The position numbers were made by a program, and so were the translations under genes. From the NCBI GenBank assembly GCA_963793305.1, contig CAWBZV010000005.1:768001-832000 (forward strand): a stretch of DNA of 64,000 nt, given 5' to 3'. The notes under the pieces are model-generated. The model was not told the origin of the DNA. It saw only the letters and a program-made list of their open reading frames with translations, and ran no database searches. Shown here one piece after another: positions 21,392 through 42,857 of the stretch; position 1 is the first letter of the stretch; every line of letters starts with the position of its first letter. This DNA comes from an uncultured Gemmatimonadales bacterium (GTDB taxonomy: Bacteria > Gemmatimonadota > Gemmatimonadetes > Gemmatimonadales > Gemmatimonadaceae).

Positions 21392-21464
21392 GGGGCGGTA
21401 GCTCAGCTGGGAGAGCGCCTGGTTTGCAACCAGGAGGTCAGGGGTTCGATCCCCCTCCGCTCCA
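21392..21464 (+). tRNA. tRNA-Ala(TGC), CCA not encoded
   Basis: 73-nt cloverleaf, acceptor GGGGCGG/CCGCTCC with G3:U70, anticodon loop TTTGCAA, TTCGATC T-loop. Confidence 0.97.
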
Positions 21465-21482
21465 TATAGTTAGCTTTTCGGG

Positions 21483-21503
21483 GGCCCGTTTGTGGGCCCG
21501 TTT
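21483..21503 (+). repeat. Arm-type direct repeat pair GGCCCGTTT with 12-bp period
   Basis: Copies at 21483 and 21495; equivalent pairs flank both downstream att cores. Confidence 0.75.
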
Positions 21504-21515
21504 CTCTTTAAAGAC

Positions 21516-22751
21516 TTACGCGCGATCGATCACCGCAACGTCGCGCACTTTCCTCGCCTCGCTCATCACGGCGAGCAGCATGTCGTTCGTCGGCTGCTGG
21601 TAGCACGTCGCCAGCGTCACCGTGCTGAGCCACCCACCGGCCTCCGCGACGTCGGCCAGCGCAAGATGCTTCCGTTCCGTCGCCCACTTCCGGCGGTACG
21701 GGTGCCATAACCCACCGTCCAACTTAGGTAATCCCGCTCGACGTTCTGCCTTCACAAGCAGCTTGGTGAACGAGTCGCGGTCCATCGGCACATCGGGATC
21801 GCTATCAGACGCGAACATCAAGCCGCCAACAGCTCCCAGCTCCCGCTGAAAGGTCCGCAACTCAACGAGCAGCGCTTTAGTTACCGGCGTCCTCCAGTCC
21901 TTTCGCTTCTTGTCGAATGAGGCCGCCCACTGAATCGCCTCGTGCCCCCAAATGATGCTCTCCCAGCGCAGGTGCCGAATCGAACGCAGCCTCCGCCCCG
22001 TGCCTTCGGCGATCACCAACGCCAGTTCAACCTTGATCCACCTCGATCGCTGCTCCGGCGTTTCGGCTTCGGCCACGAGCTCTCGAATGGCAGCCCGTGT
22101 TGCGATGAACCGGTCCCATGTCGATATCGGCCGCCGCGGCCGTCGATCGCGCGGCGTGCGTAGGCCAGCAATTGGATTCGCGTCCAACAGCCGGACCCCG
22201 TTGACTCGCGTCGTTCGTGCCCAGTTCAACATTCCGTTTAGTACTGCAAGATCACCCACGACCGATCGCATCCGCACCGGCTTCGTCGTCCAGTTCTCGT
22301 TGATCCGGATGCCGCCGGCGCGTCGAGTATTGCGGAACGCCACGACATCATCCACGGTCAAGTCTCGCACGTCGCATCGTGCGCCAAAGTGTGCGATCAG
22401 GACCGTGGCGCGGCTCGTCGTATCGGCTTGAATCCGCGAACTACACGCGAGGTACGTGGCGCACGTAGTCCGGTACCTTTCCCACAAATCGCCTAACGTG
22501 AGTCGCCGGGTCGCAACCTCTGTGCCGCCCACTGGACGGCGCAGTTCTGCCAACAGCTCTTTTCCCAATCGCTCGGCGCGCATGCGGTCGGCCGTATCCA
22601 AGGAACGGCGGTTCTTCCCCTGGCCGGTGACCCACGTCGAGCGATAGAACACGCCACCCCTTCGTTTTTGAAACAGCCTAACGCGACAGCCGCGCTCACC
22701 GAGCGTTCGCGTCCATTTCCCTTTGACCTTGTACCAGCCGCTACGTGCCAT
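21516..22751 (-). CDS. Tyrosine recombinase/integrase
   Basis: GTGRR, HPYRR (HxxR), GGW and TCY catalytic pattern; adjacent to the tRNA att site; start taken at MARSGWYK. Confidence 0.9.
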   Translation of the reverse strand: MARSGWYKVKGKWTRTLGERGCRVRLFQKRRGGVFYRSTWVTGQGKNRRSLDTADRMRAERLGKELLAELRRPVGGTEVATRRLTLGDLWERYRTTCATYLACSSRIQADTTSRATVLIAHFGARCDVRDLTVDDVVAFRNTRRAGGIRINENWTTKPVRMRSVVGDLAVLNGMLNWARTTRVNGVRLLDANPIAGLRTPRDRRPRRPISTWDRFIATRAAIRELVAEAETPEQRSRWIKVELALVIAEGTGRRLRSIRHLRWESIIWGHEAIQWAASFDKKRKDWRTPVTKALLVELRTFQRELGAVGGLMFASDSDPDVPMDRDSFTKLLVKAERRAGLPKLDGGLWHPYRRKWATERKHLALADVAEAGGWLSTVTLATCYQQPTNDMLLAVMSEARKVRDVAVIDRA

Positions 22752-23133
22752 GCACGCCTCCACGATGGAGACGGCGCTCGCGGAGCGACCGGGCATCGGC
22801 AGTGGGATCATACCCGGTGTCATCCGCGTCAGCAACATCGCTATGCTTCGCCACACGCTTCGGTAGATCACCACGCCGTACGCGCGGCGCGTACTTGCGG
22901 CCGACGTTGGCCAGCTTGCCCTCGCGTACCAGGCGCGCTAGGTGGTCGACACTATACCCAGATTCCTCTGATCCTTGCCGGAGCGTGAGGCGCCTTCCGT
23001 CGTCGGCCTGTAGCACAGCTTCGAGCTCCGCGGCCAACACCTCAATGGTGGCAGCGGCCTGCTCGACCCCGTGTCGGCGGAACAGTTCGGCCCGAGCGCG
23101 CCACTCGGCGACCAGGTTTCGTACGTCGCTCAT
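22741..23133 (-). CDS. Excisionase-like helix-turn-helix protein
   Basis: LTLRQGSEESGYSVDHLARLVREGKL HTH; overlaps the integrase start. Confidence 0.75.
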   Translation of the reverse strand: MSDVRNLVAEWRARAELFRRHGVEQAAATIEVLAAELEAVLQADDGRRLTLRQGSEESGYSVDHLARLVREGKLANVGRKYAPRVRRGDLPKRVAKHSDVADADDTGYDPTADARSLRERRLHRGGVHGT

Positions 23134-30037: not shown

Positions 30038-30277
30038 ATGCGCGTCCGGATTTCAGAGCTGATGCGAGCTCGTGGCATCGCTACGGCCTACATGCTGGCG
30101 AAGCAATCCAACGGCGCCATCACGAACAACGTCGCCTACCGACTCGTTCAGACTGACGGCCGGTTCGAGCGCTTCACCGCCGCCCTACTCGACGCGCTAT
30201 GCGACGTTTTCGACGTTGGGCCAGGCGAGTTACTGGAGTACGAGGGTAAGGCGCGGAGGCGCAGGGCAGGGAACTAG
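30038..30277 (+). CDS. Cro/C1-type (HTH_26-like) regulator
   Basis: RISELMRARGI...LDALCDVFDVGPGELLEY. Confidence 0.85.
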   Translation: MRVRISELMRARGIATAYMLAKQSNGAITNNVAYRLVQTDGRFERFTAALLDALCDVFDVGPGELLEYEGKARRRRAGN

Positions 30278-30297: not shown

Positions 30298-31700
30298 CTA
30301 AATGCCAGTCCCACCCCAGAGAGCCGCGTTCACTCTTCTCAGGATCGCATTTCCACAGAATTCACAGCCGGGTTGCCGGGGGCGCAACACGCGCCGGCGC
30401 GCCAGAGGTGGATGCCACGGGCTGATCCGCCAATAGTTGTAGTTTCTCGTGTGCTGAACGTCGGAGAGCCAGCGGACCAGTTCGAGGGCGAGCATGGTGC
30501 CCGCCAATACCGAAACAAACGCGAATGGCGCGATGATCTGCCGGCCCGCGACAGTGCCGAGATGCCCCTCTGCGCAGAGTTGCTTGAAGAGCGTGTCGTA
30601 CGCGGTACCGACTAGTTGCGCAGTAACAAGCCCAGGATACCTCTGTGCTATGATCTCGGCTGCCGGAACTGATATGCGTTCAGCTCGGACCATTGCAACG
30701 GATACGCCCAGGTGATCGGCAATATGCTGTTCACGAGTCAGTTCTTCATTGTCGGGCTCGTAGATGCAGCTCAGACAACCTGAATCGGTCGGCTGGATAT
30801 GATGGTGCAGAACGATTTCCCGAATATCCGTCGTTGAAGCGTCGAACACTTCGCCCGGCATTTCGTTTTGCAACGATCGCCGGGCACGCCGACTGTCGAC
30901 TGCGACGACAAGCCGGCGTAACCACGGCCCCTCCGATTTTTCGGGGAGGTCCTGTAGCCGCGAATATCGCGGGACGAGTGTGAGGCGCGGAAAGAAGGGT
31001 TGCGCTTTTTCTGCTAAGCACTCTGCTTTGGGCGAGTTGATGTCATCCGATTCGAACCAGATTTGCCGATTTAGATTCCCAGAGGCCACCTTGTCGTCAT
31101 CCACGATCTCGAAACGTCCCCGTAGGTCTAGAATGACGCGCTGCCCAGAGGAGAGCATTGCCAATAGCTCCTGCTCCGGCGACGTAAGCGTGACCAAGGT
31201 CTATCGGCCGTTCGATTGAATCGAGATCGATCCCGAGTTGGGTAAAGTCCAAGAATGAGCGGATCTGACGCGCCGAACGGGAGCCTACTGCCCAAGGCGC
31301 GGTGTAGAGCAGCAGCAGACGCGTAACAGGCAATCATCAAGCACAAGATCGCCGGAACCTGCGAGCACTCCTTTGAGCTGACGTGGCATCCGATGACTGC
31401 TTGATCGAGATCCACTAGAACGCGGATCGCTTTGGTTCCCGTTTGTGGTGCCGCCGCTCCGATCACGAGTTCGGCCGCTGCTTCCGAATCCGCCAACGTC
31501 GACACGGATTGCGCCGTGCGACTGAGTAACGCAATAACCTCATGGCAGATACGTTGTGCCACACGATCGTTGGGATCTGCCGTGACAACGATCGAGAGTT
31601 CGAGTGCTTTGGATGCCTCGGTGATATGAATTCCGAGCGCCTGAGCGAGGGCAGCAGCGTTCTCGCGGCGAGCCTCCGGCGTCAGGTGATCCGCAGGCAT
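30298..31700 (-). CDS. bilD: Ubiquitin E1-like (ThiF family) enzyme, about 466 aa after correcting two +1 frameshifts (31251-31252 and 31132-31133)
   Basis: GAGAIG, VDDDKVASGNLNRQ, AVDSRRAR, CLSC and CEFC zinc motifs, candidate catalytic Cys in QLCAEG; motifs lie in three consecutive frames. Confidence 0.8.
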
Positions 31701-32146
31701 TCGTGCTCCAGCTGTGCTCTTGGCACTTCAACCCAACGTGCGGCGGCTGTGAAATGATAAGTCTTGGCCTCGTCGAGGAAATTCGAGACGGTTGTGGCGG
31801 ATGCAAAGTGGGGTACTACCAGCGACAACGCGCCCTCATGACGGATAATTGCCCAGCGATCGTCCGCCGTGGAATGGAATGCTTCGCCAGGATGCGAATG
31901 AACCTGAGCAGCTACCATAAGCCGACGCTTTCTTAGCTCTGCATACAGTGCTGTCATTCCCGCCGGGGGAATTTCAAACATGTCTTCGCTCGCATTCTGC
32001 ATCGGTCGATAGGCTTCTTCGACCTGAAGAAGTGCACCGTTGCGCCGACCCAGCCAAAGCACGATGCACTCGCAGTTGTCTTGACCCGCATCGCGCAAAT
32101 GAGTGAGCGTCAAATCAACGAGCGCAGGAGGGCAGAGCGTTAACAT
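31682..32146 (-). CDS. bilC: JAB/MPN metallopeptidase (DUB-like)
   Basis: N-terminal Glu (ECIV) and QVHSHPGEAFHSTADD JAMM motif. Confidence 0.88.
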   Translation of the reverse strand: MLTLCPPALVDLTLTHLRDAGQDNCECIVLWLGRRNGALLQVEEAYRPMQNASEDMFEIPPAGMTALYAELRKRRLMVAAQVHSHPGEAFHSTADDRWAIIRHEGALSLVVPHFASATTVSNFLDEAKTYHFTAAARWVEVPRAQLEHECLRIT

Positions 32147-32584
32147 CTACCCTTGTCCTTTCTGCCAGGCGCGCCATACTTGGGTCAATATGCCGCCGAG
32201 GTCGTAGCTGGAGGCATCCCTAAGATTCTGCCAGAGATCGCTCACGTGGCTCGGGTGCGTGTGGTATTCTCGTGAGCCCCGCATGCAGATGAACAATCGA
32301 TTGGTGATCGGGTGTGGTCCGGGATGAAACACGCCCGTCGGGTTCGACAGCGCGGTCGTCAGCAATGAGCCATCGGCCGCATGGAGCGTTATTGACGGCG
32401 GTAGATCATTCCAGTCGTTACAAGTGAACCGAACCCGTAGCGGAGTTCGACCGATCGCAGTGAACGAACAGTCGATAATCGGAAATTCAAGCGCGTGAAG
32501 AGTCCATCCACGACGCTGTGCTAACGCCGGAGACAAAGAACCCACATCGCGTTCGAACAATTCCTTGGCGGCGGCCGGATGCAT
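32147..32584 (-). CDS. bilB: Bacterial E2-like conjugating enzyme
   Basis: WNDLPPSI and HPITNRLFICMRGSREYHTHPSH with candidate catalytic Cys; lies between the Ubl and JAB genes. Confidence 0.75.
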   Translation of the reverse strand: MHPAAAKELFERDVGSLSPALAQRRGWTLHALEFPIIDCSFTAIGRTPLRVRFTCNDWNDLPPSITLHAADGSLLTTALSNPTGVFHPGPHPITNRLFICMRGSREYHTHPSHVSDLWQNLRDASSYDLGGILTQVWRAWQKGQG

Positions 32585-32898
32585 TACCCCCCTCCGCCCT
32601 CGCTCGGACCCCAGTCGATCTCCACCTCGCCGGCGAGGCCGTGCTGTTGGTAGGTCAGCGCAATGTTGATTTCACGCTTGCCCGAGGGTAGCGTGACGGT
32701 CGCAACCCAGCCCGTCGTGTCTTTGATCTTTAATTCCGCTTTGGCCTTGTGCAGGCCGACCTCCACCTTCTGGTCGATGGGCACTCGGTTGAATCCCTCG
32801 GCGGGATAGAAGCCCGCGGTAGTCGAAACCGAGACCTCCACGAAATGCTCGCGCTTGTGTTCATCGGCCGAGCCATGGCTCGATTGCCCCATACTCAT
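32584..32898 (-). CDS. bilA: Single-domain ubiquitin-like protein
   Basis: 104 aa, beta-grasp-like pattern, C-terminus PSEGGGG; TAATG coupling to the E2 gene. Confidence 0.75.
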   Translation of the reverse strand: MSMGQSSHGSADEHKREHFVEVSVSTTAGFYPAEGFNRVPIDQKVEVGLHKAKAELKIKDTTGWVATVTLPSGKREINIALTYQQHGLAGEVEIDWGPSEGGGG

Positions 32899-32910
32899 CT
32901 CCGTCGCTCC

Positions 32911-33015
32911 TGACTTGAGAAGTCACATATGATGCAATTTATGGCCATTTTATACATTGTCAATGGCCGATGAATATATCAAAAACGTTGCTTTTTTGGC
33001 CTGAAGCAGTATAAT
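32911..33015. promoter_or_regulatory. Back-to-back promoters with inverted repeats
   Basis: Minus strand TTGACA(32963-32958)-N16-TAAATT; plus strand TTGCTT(32988)-N16-TATAAT(33010); palindromes TGACTT-GAG-AAGTCA and GGCCATT-N12-AATGGCC. Confidence 0.7.
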
Positions 33016-33045
33016 TCCAGAGCACCAAATCGGAGAGACGAGGCT

Positions 33046-33255
33046 ATGGATCGCAAACAAATGACGCTAATGCTCAGCGACAAGGAGATGTCGCTGCTCG
33101 ATGAGCTGGCTGAGCGGCGGGGGATGTCAAAGACCGCACTCGTGCGCCAGGCGCTGCGGCTCTACCAATCGGTGACGGAGCGGATCGAGAGCGGAGAGAA
33201 AGTCTTCGTAGAGCGACCGTCGACGAAAGAGAAAACTGAGCTCATGGTCCTATGA
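33046..33255 (+). CDS. CopG/ribbon-helix-helix protein
   Basis: QMTLMLS...LDELAERRGMSKTALVRQAL. Confidence 0.85.
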   Translation: MDRKQMTLMLSDKEMSLLDELAERRGMSKTALVRQALRLYQSVTERIESGEKVFVERPSTKEKTELMVL

Positions 33256-33863
33256 AGGAACTGCTCGGCGACGCCATTCTGCTCGAGCGCAGCACCGAGG
33301 CTGATGCTCCCGCCCGGATATTCAGGACACTGGACCAGAAGAATTTCGACGATTTCGAGACTTTGTGGCGCCCGATGCTCAAAGAAGCGCGTGGCCGGGC
33401 CGCCTCCTGGGAGGGCGCCGCGAAGTTCGACGCTCAGGATTCGCACTGGGAGTGGGTTGAGAAGGCGGTCGAGGCCGAACGCATCATGGGCCGCGACACC
33501 TACGCAGTAGAATGCGCGGGCGTCACCCAAGGACTGATGCTCATCAATGTCGGGTTCGGACGATTACCCGACCAGCGCGGCAAGGAGCTGATCTACATTG
33601 AGCTTCTCGCCACGGCGCCATGGAATCGGCCGAAACTGACTCCAGATGCGCGCTACAAGGGTGTCGGCCGTGTGCTGGTGGGTACGGCGATCAGCCTGAG
33701 TGATGATCTCGGCTTTGGAGGCTGCATCGGTCTACACTCATTGCCCCAGTCGGAAGACTGGTACCGAGCGGGCGGGTTCACGGACGTCAAGTACGACGAG
33801 TCGAAGAAGATGCGGTATTTCGAGATGACTAACGACGATGCGCTGGCATTCGTATCAGATTGA
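33252..33863 (+). CDS. GNAT-family acetyltransferase
   Basis: YIELLATAPWNR, YKGVG acetyl-CoA loop, GLHSLPQSEDWY; ATGA overlap with the RHH gene. Confidence 0.85.
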   Translation: MKELLGDAILLERSTEADAPARIFRTLDQKNFDDFETLWRPMLKEARGRAASWEGAAKFDAQDSHWEWVEKAVEAERIMGRDTYAVECAGVTQGLMLINVGFGRLPDQRGKELIYIELLATAPWNRPKLTPDARYKGVGRVLVGTAISLSDDLGFGGCIGLHSLPQSEDWYRAGGFTDVKYDESKKMRYFEMTNDDALAFVSD

Positions 33864-33872
33864 GGAGGGATT

Positions 33873-34376
33873 ATGAAACTGCTATTCACTATCGACGGCT
33901 TGCGACGAAAGATCGCGGCCGATCCAGAAGACGAACCTATGGCGGGCGGCCCCGAGGGCCGCTCCGTCGATAGCACATTGGCGGCGGAAAACGCTGCCAT
34001 CATTGGTGAGAGCAAGGTAGTCCAGCTGCGTATCGGTCTAGGGGTACTCGTGCGCCAGTTGCGGCTCAGAGATGGCCTGTCGATCGCTCAACTCTCCGAG
34101 CGAGCCCAGGTTGCGGAAGATGATCTGCGTCAAGTCGAACATAACCCTCATTACACAGCACGCGCGCGCTTGATTCACCAGCTTTCGGAGTACTTCGGCG
34201 TGTCCCTCACGATGTTGTCGCAAATGTCGGGCACGACACATTCCGTTGACCGAGCACTCTATAATGATGTGGTCAAGTACGCCGCGCATTCGGATGATGT
34301 CTCAGCTCTCACGAGTGAAGAGCGAGAGACGCTCCATGCTTTCGTCGCTATGCTGAATGAGCGCTCGCGGACCTAG
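33873..34376 (+). CDS. XRE-family HTH protein with N-terminal extension
   Basis: LGVLVRQLRLRDGLSIAQLSERAQV...QVEH; strong RBS GAGGAGG. Confidence 0.82.
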   Translation: MKLLFTIDGLRRKIAADPEDEPMAGGPEGRSVDSTLAAENAAIIGESKVVQLRIGLGVLVRQLRLRDGLSIAQLSERAQVAEDDLRQVEHNPHYTARARLIHQLSEYFGVSLTMLSQMSGTTHSVDRALYNDVVKYAAHSDDVSALTSEERETLHAFVAMLNERSRT

Positions 34377-34378
34377 CT

Positions 34379-35305
34379 ATGCTGGAGGGTGAGCTCGGAG
34401 ATTTCGAGAAGCGCGATATTCGGGCGCAAGTCGAACGGATCCTCAGAGACCTCGGTAACCCCGAGCCTCCCCTGCGACTGGCTGATGTCCGCAAGCTCCT
34501 CGCGATCGATCTCCATTACTATCGAAGCTCAGATCCAGGCCTGGTCGATGAGCTCACACATCGGTTCAAGGTCTTCGCCCGAAAATCGATCCCCGACCTG
34601 GGCAAGCATCTGCTATCGGCGTTGACGAAGTCACGACTCTGTGCATTCTGGGTGCCGGAAAGCTCGAAAATTCTTGTCGACGCTGATGTGCCCGAGCCGA
34701 AGCACCGCTGGCTAGAAGCGCATGAAGTCACTCACAGCGTAACGCCATGGCACCGCAAGTTTCTCTTCGGTGACAACTATCACACGTTGGATCCGGCTTG
34801 CCACGCATCGTTGGAGGCCGAGGCAAATTACGGCGCGGGAAGACTTCTCTTCTTGCAGAATCGGCTTGCCGAGGAAGCTCGCGATCTCCCGCTGTCGTTC
34901 GAGTCAATCAAGTTGCTGTCGAAGCGATACCACAACTCAATCGTCTCGACGTTCTGGCGGGCTGTAGAGGATCGAAACCCAGATCAACCGGCATTTGGGA
35001 TTGTTAGCGTTCATCCGCTTTATCCGGATATTGGCAATCATGATGGACCCAATCCCTGGCGCTATTACATCCGATCCTCGGGATTCCAAAGACAGTTTTC
35101 AGTCGTGACGCCCGATGACGCCTTTGGCCTTGTGGCCCGGTACGCGAGTAACAAAAGGACGGGGCCCATTTTCACTGCGACGCATCTACTTAGAGATGTG
35201 AACGGAGACGAATGGGAATTCAACATTGAATCCTTCTCGACCAAGCATGCGCTCTTGACTCTCGGGTTTCCGGTTCGCCGGCATCAGACCCTGGTATCCA
35301 CTTGA
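34379..35305 (+). CDS. ImmA/IrrE-family Zn metallopeptidase
   Basis: AHEVTH (HExxH) and EAEAN motifs; 2 bp downstream of the XRE gene. Confidence 0.85.
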   Translation: MLEGELGDFEKRDIRAQVERILRDLGNPEPPLRLADVRKLLAIDLHYYRSSDPGLVDELTHRFKVFARKSIPDLGKHLLSALTKSRLCAFWVPESSKILVDADVPEPKHRWLEAHEVTHSVTPWHRKFLFGDNYHTLDPACHASLEAEANYGAGRLLFLQNRLAEEARDLPLSFESIKLLSKRYHNSIVSTFWRAVEDRNPDQPAFGIVSVHPLYPDIGNHDGPNPWRYYIRSSGFQRQFSVVTPDDAFGLVARYASNKRTGPIFTATHLLRDVNGDEWEFNIESFSTKHALLTLGFPVRRHQTLVST

Positions 35306-35339
35306 GTCGCTCCCGCGCGTATGAGGGAGCGCTGCTCCA

Positions 35340-35690
35340 GTGAGGCAATGGCTGCGTCGCGCGGTGGATCTGGTCCGGCAGGCTGTTGGTCACCCGTCCA
35401 GAGTCGTTCGACCGCACCGTCGCCGCGTCGATGTCAAGCGCGTCAGTGTCAGGAGATATGGCAAGTTCAATGACAGACCGCCTCCGTTGCACTGGGCCCC
35501 CTGTCATCCGTCAACCATTCATCGCTTCAAGGCTACCATGGCTTGTCCGGCGGGCCATGTGCTCACGCTTCGAATTCACGCAATCGGGTCAGACGGCGCG
35601 GTCACCCCGAGCGTCGTGTGCCCAGTGAAGTGCTGCACCTTTCATGAATACGTTCGACTGACAGACTGGACATTTGGATCTATTGGATGA
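35340..35690 (+). CDS. Small Cys/His-rich putative Zn-binding protein (DUF6527-like pattern; start uncertain)
   Basis: CPAGH...H.I...G.VTPSVVC...C.FH..V.L..W. Confidence 0.55.
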   Translation: MRQWLRRAVDLVRQAVGHPSRVVRPHRRRVDVKRVSVRRYGKFNDRPPPLHWAPCHPSTIHRFKATMACPAGHVLTLRIHAIGSDGAVTPSVVCPVKCCTFHEYVRLTDWTFGSIG

Positions 35691-35763: not shown

Positions 35764-37089
35764 ATGTTCCCGTTTCATATTGGAACTATGTCCCGGTCGC
35801 ACCGGCCCTTAGGCGCCGCGCTCGAGCCTCCGTTGGTCGTGCTTGTGCACGAGGGGAAGGGACCCGTCGCGCGTGGATCGGCCAGTGACGGGTTCGACTA
35901 CACGTGTCACGCGTGCGATCTGGTTCTGGCTGAGAGTGTTGACGAGAACGCGCTGTGGGACGTGGGACTCAAGTGTCCCCAGTGCGGAGCGCTGAATGAC
36001 GCGCCAAGCCTCTCGGCGGATCGGCCCTTGCCCAGGCAGTTCGTCGAGATAATGCCTGGAGTCAGGGTCTATCGGGAGACCATCGATCTCCGGGGGGCGA
36101 GTGTCGTGGGAACTCCGGGGTTGGCACGCCGCGGCGCCACTCGACCCACACGCGAAGCGACCTTCCGAGCGACTGAGACAGCCTACTCCTTGGTGATCGA
36201 GCCGCGCGAGTTTCTGAGCGACCTGGTTGATCGCGTTCGGGCGACGCTCGGCGACGCGTTTGCCGTCATCGAAGCGCGCGACAAGCGGCGCCGGGCCAGT
36301 CGAGCCGCGCCAGAGAACCGTCATGGGCTCATGGTGGCGGTGGAAGCGGTGCAGGCGTCGATCGTAAGCCTCGAGTCATTCGAGCCAACGATCGCTGTCT
36401 CTGCAGTAACGGAGCTGGACGTCGTGCTTCGGTTCCTAGAGCGATGGCGGGGAGTGCGGGAGTGGCCGACATTGATTGAAGCGCTTTCTCAGCAACAACA
36501 GTACGCACACACCGTGGTGTTGCTCGCGACGGCGACGGCGCTGGCAGACAAAGGGAATGTCGTCGATTTCATGCCGACGGCCCGGTCGCGTACCCCGGAC
36601 CTGGTCATGATGCGCGCTGCGGGTGGTTGGTTCGCGGTCGAGGTGAAAGGGCCGCGCGCATTGGCCACGCGGTTTCCCAGGCGATGGAAGGCAGACGAGG
36701 CGTATGATCTGATCCGCACGCAAGTGATGCGCGCCCGCCGAGGGAACAAGGGGCAGATGGCAGCGGGCGAGGCAGGCCTCCTGGTGATCGGCGGGATGTA
36801 CAATCACCTCGAGACAATCGAATGCCTCAAGGCGGCGGCGGTCGAGTATTTGGCTGATGCGGCCGGGAAGCATCGCCATTCGGACATGGAGGGGATCTCG
36901 CTCGTCAATGTGGCGACACTCGTCGAAAATCGTGCGCCGCTCGGCCGACCGCTGTTACCCTTTGCGCAATTTCGCTGGGTTCGACATCCCGGGTACCGCG
37001 GTCGGGCATCGATCGTTCCATCAAATGCCGGGATGAACGTCGTATCAGGGCCGCTAACTCAACCGGGCGACGTGCGGATGGACGTGTAA
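35764..37089 (+). CDS. Zinc-ribbon plus PD-(D/E)xK nuclease-like protein
   Basis: CHAC/CPQC at the N-terminus; TPDL...AVEVKGP. Confidence 0.65.
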   Translation: MFPFHIGTMSRSHRPLGAALEPPLVVLVHEGKGPVARGSASDGFDYTCHACDLVLAESVDENALWDVGLKCPQCGALNDAPSLSADRPLPRQFVEIMPGVRVYRETIDLRGASVVGTPGLARRGATRPTREATFRATETAYSLVIEPREFLSDLVDRVRATLGDAFAVIEARDKRRRASRAAPENRHGLMVAVEAVQASIVSLESFEPTIAVSAVTELDVVLRFLERWRGVREWPTLIEALSQQQQYAHTVVLLATATALADKGNVVDFMPTARSRTPDLVMMRAAGGWFAVEVKGPRALATRFPRRWKADEAYDLIRTQVMRARRGNKGQMAAGEAGLLVIGGMYNHLETIECLKAAAVEYLADAAGKHRHSDMEGISLVNVATLVENRAPLGRPLLPFAQFRWVRHPGYRGRASIVPSNAGMNVVSGPLTQPGDVRMDV

Positions 37090-38105: not shown

Positions 38106-38189
38106 TCGATCCCTCGGGTTTGCTGGATGGCCCCAGCATACGACCATACCCCGGCCCGCCGCTGGAACCAAAGTCTCATTTGCGCTCGC

Positions 38190-38879
38190 GTGATCAGTTT
38201 AGACGTACTCGCTCGTATTCCCCTCGTTGACAAGCTCTCACCGGCGGCGCGGCGCGCCCTCGCCGGCCGGGCTATCACGCGTCAATTCGGCGCGGGGGAA
38301 GTGTTGTAGACAGTCGGCAGCCCGATCGATGACATGCTAGTCGTCATCGAGGGCGAGGTGCGCGTAATCCGTGAAGGGGGCGGACGACAGCACGTGCTGC
38401 ACACCGAGGGGCCGGGTGGCACGTTGGGCGAGGTGCCGTTCTATAGTGGGGGAGCAGCCCCCGCGACCGCCATCGCGGTCGTGCCAACCCAGTGCCTCGT
38501 TCTGTCACGCGGGGCGATCGAGGCCGCGATCGTCGCCGACCCCGCCGTGGCGTGGGTGCTCCTTGGCCGGCTGGCCTCGCGCGTCCGGGGGCTCGTAGAG
38601 CGAGTAGATCGCCTGGCGCTTCAAAGCGCCACCACGCGCCTGGTGGGACTGCTGGTCGCCAAAGTTCCGCGCACGAGCATCGGAGGCGAGGCAGTTGTCA
38701 GCCTTGGGATGTCGCAGGCGGTTTTGGCCGCCGAGTTGGGGACGGTGCGCGAGGTGATCGTGCGGGCACTGCGGTCGCTCAGGGAGCGCGGGTTGATCTC
38801 GACCGCTGGGCGCGGCTGTCTTCGCATCGTAGACGTTGCCGCGCTACGGCGCGCGGCAGAAGAGGTGAGTCCGACTTAG
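38190..38879 (+). pseudogene. Crp/Fnr-family regulator with an in-frame TAG at 38307-38309
   Basis: cNMP-binding fold (GEVRV, GGTLGEV) and HTH LGTVREVIVRAL; both parts are in the same frame. Confidence 0.75.
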
Positions 38880-42408: not shown

Positions 42409-42650
42409 GTTGCGCGGAGCCGCGCTCACCGCGACAAAGGCGTAAAACGAAACACACGAGCGTCTTACAGAAGGGGTGATTCCGGTACTGCGCGATATCG
42501 ACGATCAGTTCTTCACCAGCTTGCCCGTCCGTGCTCGACGATGCGTCATAGGGCGTCCCATCGTGCGCCAATGTCGTGATCGCAGAGGCGAGCGATTGCC
42601 TCGGCCATTCCGGTGTCGTCCTCTTGACCACCCAAGTGGTTTCAGACGTG

Positions 42651-42857
42651 GGCCCGTTTCTGGGCCCGTTTCTCCCGGCAAACTCCGTCATCCGGGGCAG
42701 GGAACCACGGCGCCGATGCCCGGTTCTCCTCTGAACGCCGTCAAGTTGACGGACTTGGATACCCCAGTAGCTTGGTTTGCAACCAGGAGGTCAGGGGTTC
42801 GATCCCCCTCCGCTCCATGGACTTAACTTTTCAGTGGCCCGTTGGTGTGCCCTGTTT
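42651..42857 (+). repeat. att junction 1: left arm, 46-bp tRNA-Ala 3' core (42773-42818) and right arm
   Basis: Core identical to 21420-21465; GGCCCGTTT pair at 42651/42663 and degenerate pair from 42836. Confidence 0.92.

Follow-up and report, generated by a model that had tools for sequence, protein, structure and literature searches.

A predicted Type II Bil operon faces a conserved divergent operon with an RHH-GNAT pair and a CapH/CapP-like switch on a tRNA-Ala island

Here, we describe a nine-gene locus in a 64,000-nucleotide stretch of DNA (the window) from an uncultured Gemmatimonadales bacterium (contig CAWBZV010000005.1, positions 768,001 to 832,000), in which a predicted Type II Bil operon, coding for a ubiquitin-like (Ubl) conjugation system, lies head-to-head with a five-gene operon coding for a ribbon-helix-helix (RHH) protein, a GNAT-fold acyltransferase, a CapH/CapP-like pair of XRE repressor and M78 metallopeptidase, and a small Cys/His protein. 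We put the probability at roughly 55% that the Bil operon, carried on a tRNA-Ala island, is controlled by this divergent operon, which would combine a CapH/CapP switch with an added RHH-GNAT layer. The locus is real and conserved. In outline its architecture is a known one, whereas our literature search gave no description of the extended control cassette or of its strong preference for Ubl systems.

For the newly characterised Bil and Bub defence systems, the question arises by what means they are held inactive and prevented from modifying proteins of the host. In this regard, a sizeable subset of Bil and Bub systems is predicted to stand under a conserved four- or five-gene cassette and not under plain CapH/CapP, and with its approximately 90% preference for Ubl/E1 systems, this cassette connects acylation and Ubl conjugation in a concrete way that can be tested. 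The extra genes (RHH, a GNAT of unmodelled family and, with Bil II, a Zn protein) were apparently skipped in the available portions of the published tables, where gene-id spacing would place the RHH-GNAT pair in 4 of 25 regulator-linked Type II Bil operons.

Locus and gene content

The locus comprises the following features, for which model matches are given in brackets.

30298-31700, minus strand: bilD (E1), a pseudogene as assembled (E1-N 9.9e-15 and ThiF 1e-16, on two separate open reading frames, ORFs)
31682-32146, minus strand: bilC, a JAB/JAMM deubiquitinase-like peptidase (Prok-JAB 5.2e-7; PADLOC BilC 2.4e-15)
32147-32584, minus strand: bilB, an E2-like protein with the CEHH motif (Pfam Metal_CEHH 4.6e-7; PADLOC BilB 6.5e-4)
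32584-32898, minus strand: bilA, a predicted ubiquitin-like protein of 104 aa with C-terminus GGGG, first gene of its operon
32899-33045, no strand: shared control region of 147 bp with divergent promoters and three TGGCC boxes
33046-33255, plus strand: RHH (CopG-type) DNA-binding protein, 69 aa (RHH_1 1.6e-8)
33252-33863, plus strand: GNAT-fold acyltransferase by predicted structure, of a family without Pfam model, 203 aa, isoelectric point (pI) 4.95
33873-34376, plus strand: CapH-like XRE repressor, 167 aa (HTH_31 1.6e-5, HTH_19, HTH_3; PADLOC capH 2.2e-4)
34379-35305, plus strand: CapP/IrrE-like M78 metallopeptidase, 308 aa, with HEVTH and EAEAN (PADLOC capP 1.6e-9)
35340-35690, plus strand: small basic Cys/His protein (an ORF), 116 aa, pI 11.2, core at approximately residues 45-113

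All nine ORFs that an earlier reading of the window, made from the letters alone (the sequence-only reading), had placed here were recovered at the same positions, and its description of two packed operons, set head-to-head around a common AT-rich spacer of 147 bp, stands. Adjoining genes of the minus-strand operon abut or overlap; on the plus strand the RHH gene runs 4 bp into the GNAT gene, and gaps of 9, 2 and 34 bp separate the genes that follow. The GC content is 42% in the spacer (32899-33045), 56-60% in the locus and 62-70% in the surrounding DNA.

Judged by their sequences, the leftward genes are a Type II BilABCD (CEHH/6C) operon: gene order, Pfam, PADLOC and matches to solved structures all agree with the earlier assignment of the Ubl-E2-JAB-E1 series to Bil and add the type. 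BilB matches solved BilB (8tyz_C) at 0.0032 over the catalytic stretch, with C, E(+6), H(+8) and H(+13) kept, and BilC matches solved BilC (8tyx_B) at 2e-19. Both domains of BilD are present, that is, the E1-N/inactive adenylation domain and the ThiF adenylation domain, and an intact orthologous E1 of 477 aa (locus L006) matches solved BilD (8tyz_A) at 4.3e-20. For BilA, with 53-72% identity in orthologous loci, searches returned no Pfam, PADLOC or NCBIfam hidden Markov model (HMM) match and no match to solved BilA; an Atlas feature search led, as a lead only, to DUF2604/YukD-type ubiquitin-like clusters.

The sequence-only reading had likened the XRE and HExxH genes to CapH/CapP, and this likeness is upheld by the PADLOC capH and capP models, by invariant motifs and by profile matches. 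The XRE profile matches SinR, 7t5u, ImmR and DdrO, and that of the peptidase matches IrrE (3dte) at 6.5e-5 and CapP (7t5t) at 0.075. Orthologues of the peptidase match Peptidase_M78 (PF06114), while the window peptidase itself has no Pfam match; the HExxH and EAEAN motifs are invariant in the alignment. A PDB search with the single peptidase sequence returned only a spurious beta-lactamase match and was set aside in favour of the profile search. The pair lies upstream of the Bil operon and divergent from it, capH being the third gene of its operon, with RHH and GNAT between it and the promoter. The XRE protein of the cassette also carries an extra conserved N-terminal motif of approximately 25 aa (MKM--T-DWL-R-I ... 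E--AG; window positions 33873-33950) ahead of the helix-turn-helix, which CapH of cyclic-oligonucleotide-based antiphage signalling systems (CBASS) should lack, its length being cited as 107 aa in the available part of the CapH/CapP preprint (10.1101/2022.04.27.489752).

The 203-aa product of the second rightward gene is, according to its structure model, a GNAT-fold protein. The model (predicted local distance difference test, pLDDT, 90.5) has the complete fold together with an extra N-terminal hairpin and C-terminal helix; Foldseek gave 475 matches at E<=1e-3, those listed being acetyltransferases, and structure comparison gave 219 chains at a VIA Z of at least 8, the best at 14.2. The neighbours include an uncharacterised Pseudomonas GNAT (Z 14.2), TacT3 (13.4), RimI (13.1), NatB (13.1), TacT2 (12.8) and AtaT (12.2), and thus fail to tell a GNAT toxin from a protein acetyltransferase. 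The acyl-CoA pyrophosphate-binding motif of GNATs is Q/R-x-x-G-x-G/A; residues 134-139 here read R-Y-K-G-V-G, with G139 invariant and K136, G137 and V138 nearly so. Conserved stretches of the family are this YKGVG motif, an LHSLPQSE-WY block and a QDSHW-W block. The window protein has no HMM match in Pfam, NCBIfam, PADLOC or PHROGs, and the orthologue in locus L009 matches Acetyltransf_10 at 1.2e-5. Among the candidates scored, 401 proteins belong to the family at E<=0.001. Family members mostly have a pI of 4.7-6, and a scan of viral contigs with the family alignment gave 18 pattern matches, none of which was confirmed.

In the small Cys/His protein the invariant residues are W52, C55, C69, H73, H80, S91, C94, C99 and H102. 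Its core is shared by a large family for which Pfam has no model (1497 representatives at E<=0.001) and whose members are mostly stand-alone proteins of 70-95 aa; among 105 representatives tested, none matched any Pfam family above threshold, nor PF20137 at E<=0.01. Its structure was modelled with low confidence only (pLDDT 62). In the Atlas, a lead was obtained to a cluster in which 10% of the members carry PF20137 (score 0.91); the Atlas label 'mostly viral' for the clusters nearest to the family was not confirmed, since neither the protein nor a small family member had a match among 50,697 phage records.

Occurrence in other genomes

Loci (numbered with L below) were gathered with GNAT-family alignments and comprise 80 genome loci and 80 metagenome loci, the latter out of at least 472 relatives. 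Neighbouring genes were located by tblastn with the window proteins, distant loci were annotated with Pfam, and partner classes were assigned by tblastn with a panel of Pfam-annotated ORFs. For the counts, 56 cyanobacterial-type genome loci, which have no RHH, XRE or M78 match, were excluded; the remaining 104 are the 80 metagenome loci and 24 of the genome loci.

That the nine genes form a single conserved unit, as the sequence-only reading had suggested, is borne out by 12 loci with all nine. In six genome loci (L001, L002, L003, L006, L007, L057) they keep the same order and orientation, two further genome loci have the arrangement cut by contig ends, and all nine are also found, arranged in the same way, in six metagenome loci (L099, L100, L101, L108, L115, L149). 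The records of orthologous loci are alpha-, beta- and gamma-proteobacterial (metagenome-assembled genomes, MAGs, and Bradyrhizobium viridifuturi), along with a Marinimicrobia MAG. Two neighbouring genes considered as parts of the locus, those for a 441-aa Zn-ribbon protein (35764-37089) and an HTH_26 protein (30038-30277), were rejected, being conserved in 0 of 80 loci each.

RHH is present in 97 of the 104 loci, and in the 64 with at least 1700 bp of downstream DNA, XRE was found in 54 and M78 in 58. The upstream partner was classified where M78 and no less than 1200 bp of upstream sequence are present; of these 58 loci, 28 have Bub, 17 Bil II, 7 other E1/JAB systems, 3 CBASS and 1 an AAA15 ATPase, and 2 have none. 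A Ubl/E1 system is thus faced by 52 of the 58, and the enrichment of rightward-operon homologues beside such systems, on which the earlier proposal of a link between the operons had been made to depend, was found and is strong. One of the two loci without partner (L126) is interrupted by an insertion sequence (IS) element and HicB, beyond which a remnant of Multi_ubiq lies farther upstream. The preference persists after clustering at 90% GNAT identity, where the 77 clusters divide into 26 Bub, 19 Bil II, 3 other E1, 2 CBASS, 1 AAA15 ATPase, 1 IS-disrupted and 25 unresolved, so that a Ubl/E1 partner accompanies 48 of the 52 resolved non-redundant clusters.

The partners differ in their chemistry. 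By Pfam, the cassette diverges from a Bil-like operon in L009; it lies, likewise divergently, beside Type I Bub (Multi_ubiq, Prok-E2_E, a JAB-ThiF fusion, DUF6527) in L008, L010, L012 and L019, beside Type II Bub (Multi_ubiq, DUF6791-ThiF, DUF6527) in L011 and L066, and beside a short ThiF with a protein kinase in L090 and L092. Rare partners are type III CBASS (L013) and an AAA_15/21 ATPase (L017). The Cys/His protein is found only with Bil-II-type loci among the 104.

Several variants were observed along the way. The segments L090:2473-4879 and L092:2529-5032 look like a different putative Ubl operon, with an ORF of 83-111 aa, one of 168 aa, a ThiF E1 of 264 aa and a Ser/Thr kinase of 283-289 aa. 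A DUF1883 protein follows M78 in place of the Cys/His protein in the CBASS-linked cassette (L013:12097-12372). XRE appears fused to M78 (304-310 aa) and followed by a 'Beta_protein' (PF14350) gene in L066:9018-11764 and L153:6725-9408. In the 11 distinct cyanobacterial loci that were annotated, GNAT is followed by an ORF of 166-241 aa without Pfam family, which it overlaps in most cases, and 7 of the 11 have extra replication or repair genes near GNAT (PolA, RecQ, TopoI, clamp loader, DnaN, D5 primase, DndB or MrfA-like helicase).

Shared control region

Three boxes lie within the 147-bp region.

32941-32948, no strand: box 1, ATGGCCAT, within the leftward promoter spacer
32963-32968, no strand: box 2, ATGGCC, abutting the leftward -35
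32997-33001, no strand: box 3, TGGCC, within the rightward promoter spacer

A consensus scan gave a leftward sigma-70-like promoter (TTGACA / TAAATT) with 10 of 12 consensus positions, and the rightward promoter (TTGCTT, 16 nt, TATAAT at 32988-33015) was read by eye and not by the scan. An alignment of 19 Bil-II-type control regions keeps the leftward -35 TTGACA, the ATGGCCAT palindrome in the leftward spacer and the ATGGCC abutting the -35, and likewise, between the two elements of the rightward promoter (TTGnnT ... TAnnnT), a TGGCC box. Every clade inspected has a box in the rightward spacer, with the sequence ATAGCTAT or ATAGCC in the clades other than Bil II. The self-complementary TRGCYA was counted 127 times in 65 non-redundant upstream regions of 135 bp, against 7.5 expected from shuffles (approximately 17-fold), and 45 of the 65 regions have two or more such boxes.

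We propose RHH as the candidate binder of the palindromic boxes of both promoters, because the boxes are enriched, RHH is the best conserved protein of the cassette and XRE is only 21-36% identical between clades. RHH identity is 81-97% across Bil-II-type loci, whereas that of the other proteins is 47-79%. Even between clades, RHH shows no change in its beta-strand or C-terminal hairpin. A complex prediction of GNAT with RHH scored 0.02 and is uninformative on binding either way.

Comparison with published systems

Part of this combination has been published. According to the available portions of the paper by Chambers et al. (Corbett lab, PMC10557695), CapH/CapP genes stand upstream of 25 among 162 Type II Bil operons, in divergent orientation and with a common promoter region. 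Supplementary Table 1 of that paper includes B. viridifuturi SEMIA 690, with Ubl at ...279, CapH at ...282 and CapP at ...283, so that two gene ids are skipped; our locus L007 is this locus, and the two skipped genes are RHH and GNAT. Gene-id spacing between Ubl and CapH in the 25 regulator-linked operons, as far as the table is available, shows a two-gene gap in 4, a one-gene gap in 3 and none in 18. CapH and CapP also accompany 168 of 544 Bub operons (PMC11601596, available portions), and part 1 of 7 of the Bub Supplementary Table 1 holds approximately 38 rows with CapP, one of which (Oceanicola sp.) has a clear two-gene gap.

In the portions of text and supplements available for PMC10557695 and PMC11601596, 'GNAT' and 'acetyltransferase' have 0 occurrences, as have 'acetyl', 'ribbon' and 'toxin' in the available portion of the CapH/CapP preprint, and a full-text literature search gave no paper joining these systems with GNAT or RHH. 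The suggestion that the combination was undescribed therefore falls for Type II Bil with divergent CapH/CapP (PMC10557695) and holds for the RHH-GNAT pair and the Cys/His protein, which go unmentioned in the available portions of both papers. As the preprint of Lau et al. is excerpted, CapP cleaves CapH on single-stranded DNA (ssDNA), and plain CapH/CapP is found with hundreds of CBASS systems (408 CapP; 10.1101/2022.04.27.489752). Makarova et al. 2009 (PMC2701414, available part) predicted both GNAT-RHH pairs and Xre-COG2856-toxin systems of three components, which is conceptually the closest forerunner.

Type II Bil with CapH/CapP shares with the window locus the Ubl-E2(CEHH)-JAB-E1 order, homology to BilB, BilC and BilD of E. 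aridi, and the upstream, divergent XRE/M78 pair. The window locus and L007 differ from it by the RHH and GNAT genes between Ubl and capH and the Cys/His gene after capP; additionally, the E1 gene is frameshifted in the window. CBASS CapH/CapP, ImmR/ImmA and DdrO/IrrE have in common with our pair that a helix-turn-helix repressor and an IrrE-like HExxH peptidase are encoded divergently from the operon that they regulate, with damage-induced cleavage expected. Unlike CBASS CapH/CapP, however, the pair lies here inside a four- or five-gene operon behind RHH-GNAT, and its partners are mostly Ubl systems. The GNAT-RHH toxin-antitoxin (TA) modules TacAT, AtaRT, KacAT and GmvAT resemble the locus in an RHH gene overlapping the downstream GNAT gene, in the GNAT fold and in RHH as a likely autoregulator. 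The differences are that RHH is here not of DUF1778 type, that the 203-aa GNAT is acidic, has an extra hairpin and helix and is without sequence-family match, and that GNAT is in its clade always followed by XRE-M78.

Interpretation

In the reading that we prefer, the divergent five-gene operon would control the Bil operon from the common 147-bp promoter region. By analogy with CapH/CapP of other loci, for which this mechanism has been demonstrated, DNA damage or ssDNA would be sensed, the IrrE-like M78 peptidase would cleave the XRE repressor, and the defence genes would be derepressed. Ahead of this switch stands the RHH-GNAT pair, apparently translationally coupled; acting on ATGGCCAT-type boxes, RHH may form a second repressor or an autorepressor layer, with GNAT as its enzymatic partner, putatively for the acyl-CoA-dependent modification of a protein component. 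The last gene would provide a small predicted Zn protein, which might act as a miniature BubE-like Ser/His peptidase on Ubl conjugates. Whether read in this way or as in the sequence-only reading, a single circuit that joins conjugation, acetylation and regulated proteolysis is putative.

Several observations weigh against this reading. CapH could bind the boxes in place of RHH. RHH-GNAT is dispensable for the control of Bil by CapH/CapP, because CapH, judged by gene-id spacing, stands directly beside Ubl in 18 of the 25 published operons. The cassette extends beyond Ubl systems, given the three CBASS loci and the one ATPase locus that carry it, and 25 of the 77 clusters, on short contigs, were unclassified. 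Further, 6 of the 64 loci with enough downstream DNA have RHH-GNAT without XRE/M78, and the cyanobacterial loci L023-L080 (for example L040:9947-11175) have GNAT homologues of 32-41% identity without RHH-XRE-M78 partners; GNAT has other partners in this branch, so that RHH-GNAT can stand alone, as a TA-like module would. As regards the Cys/His protein, PF20137 matched 0 of 11 orthologues at E<=10, and two hhalign comparisons with BubE/DUF6527 (E 0.0025 and 0.0028) reached a probability of only 11-12%.

The best placed of the alternatives, though in our view unlikely, is that RHH-GNAT is an autonomous type II TA module captured upstream of CapH/CapP, in which GNAT would acetylate charged tRNAs and RHH would be antitoxin and autorepressor. 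The module could then serve as an addiction module of the island or as an abortive-infection effector freed when M78 fires, as in the Xre-COG2856-toxin systems (Makarova et al. 2009). GNAT-RHH and Xre-COG2856-toxin modules have been described, as far as the available part of PMC2701414 goes, and the antitoxin-then-toxin order with its 4-bp overlap, the weak RelB/VapB-antitoxin-like NCBIfam matches of RHH, the loci with RHH-GNAT alone and the place of solved GNAT toxins among the structural neighbours (TacT3 13.4, TacT2 12.8 and AtaT 12.2, against a best of 14.2) are all consistent with it. However, N-terminal and other protein acetyltransferases reach the same Z range as these toxins, no model of Pfam, NCBIfam or PADLOC matches GNAT, and RHH, which is RHH_1/CopG-type, has no DUF1778 match in Pfam, its only matches being RHH_1 and weak ones to NikA/PSK. 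tRNA-acetylating toxins have basic tRNA-binding surfaces, and the acidic GNAT (pI 4.95) argues weakly against tRNA binding. The approximately 90% preference for Ubl systems over four unrelated operon types would also be unexpected of a hitch-hiking TA. On account of the RHH family and the acidic GNAT, the earlier assignment of the pair to TA modules was not sustained.

A lower probability still goes to the proposal that GNAT acetylates lysines or N-termini of Ubl, E2/E1 or host proteins, thereby blocking or directing conjugation, and that the Cys/His protein is a BubE-like deconjugase, which would make the 'regulatory' operon a safety or editing arm as well. It draws on the specificity of the cassette for Ubl/E1 systems of different chemistry (Bil II, Bub I, Bub II and ThiF-kinase; 52 of 58 loci), plain CapH/CapP being found instead with the hundreds of CBASS systems noted above, on the restriction of the Cys/His protein to Bil II loci, on the alignment of that protein with BubE residues set out below, and on the presence of protein N-terminal and lysine acetyltransferases among the structural neighbours of GNAT. 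Against it stand the cassettes beside CBASS type III and the AAA ATPase, both without Ubl, the likeness to BubE, which is under any accepted threshold, and the poor model of the Zn protein.

The likeness to BubE can be set out residue by residue. In the low-probability hhalign alignment, CP-G, L, P-S and C-x-x-H fall on BubE residues, seven of eight invariant, including the published Ser-His dyad. Like BubE/DUF6527 as described in the available portions of PMC11601596, the Cys/His protein is a small, predicted Zn-binding and beta-rich protein encoded with a Ubl system. It differs from BubE in the missing PF20137 match, in having one Cys and one His for the CxCxC knuckle, in its core of approximately 70 aa with a basic N-terminal tail, and in its gene being part of the regulator operon in Bil II loci, where a JAB peptidase is already present. 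The protein may, weakly supported by these sequence comparisons, be a remotely BubE-like peptidase.

A related claim, that RHH-GNAT is a dedicated partner of Ubl conjugation in which GNAT gates conjugation by acetylation, at lysines or N-termini, of Ubl, E2/E1, host proteins or repressors, together with a miniature BubE-like deconjugase, is doubtful too, if marginally less so than the acetylation proposal above. If true, it would mean cross-talk between acetylation and ubiquitination in bacteria and a portable control cassette serving Bil II, Bub I, Bub II and the ThiF-kinase type.

That the two operons are adjacent merely by chance or island mosaicism, with no functional link, as a mobile island with many unrelated genes might suggest, is highly improbable in view of the conserved promoter region and of the nine-gene order, which recurs in records of alpha-, beta- and gamma-proteobacteria and of Marinimicrobia although their proteins are only 47-79% identical.

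The E1 gene

As assembled, the E1 gene is broken, which the sequence-only reading had implied, and the break consists of two frameshifts instead of one. When the 477-aa E1 of L006 was aligned to the window by tblastn, three high-scoring segment pairs in three frames were obtained, of which the middle piece of 40 residues, in its own third frame, holds the ATP-binding GxGxxG segment. Each site has one extra T, at 31253-31256 and at 31132: relatives read CTCATCTTG (CTC ATC TTG) and CATCT(C/A), and the window reads CTCATTCTTG and CATTCTA. Both insertions add a T to the same hexamer, TCATCT, of which no intact copy is left in the gene. The E1 is intact in orthologues such as L006 and L149, the latter being the closest relative retrieved (GNAT 75% and RHH 97% identical) with an uninterrupted E1. 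Due to the two frameshifts, the conjugation arm is therefore dead as assembled, and the control operon is intact.

Programmed ribosomal frameshifting was considered and rejected, because the two sites lie in different codon phases. No more than 6-9% of the sampled words were present in three public read runs, whose contigs leave 31106-31307 uncovered. The E1 coding strand originally had only two TCATCT hexamers, and with the insertions these make up half of the TCATTCT sites of the 64-kb window, which number just four. No signal was obtained for TCATTCT as a frameshift or error motif across the genome: 28 of 396 sites gain an ORF on deletion of the T, and six control 7-mers gave 19-28 of 306-400.

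Another inactivated gene was observed on the island, coding for a Crp/Fnr-like regulator (cNMP_binding and HTH_Crp_2; 38127-38879, plus strand) with an in-frame TAG at 38307-38309. This stop fits a real decay of the island.

Island setting

The locus is carried by an integrative island with the following features.

21392-42852, no strand: integrative island of approximately 21.4 kb carrying the locus, comprising tRNA, integrase and direct repeats
21392-21464: tRNA-Ala(TGC)
21516-22874, minus strand: tyrosine integrase
21417-21499 and 42770-42852: 83-nt direct repeat of the 3' part of the tRNA, 89% identical

A second, short repeat pair (21479-21506 and 42647-42674) was also observed, which hints at a tandem or older insertion.

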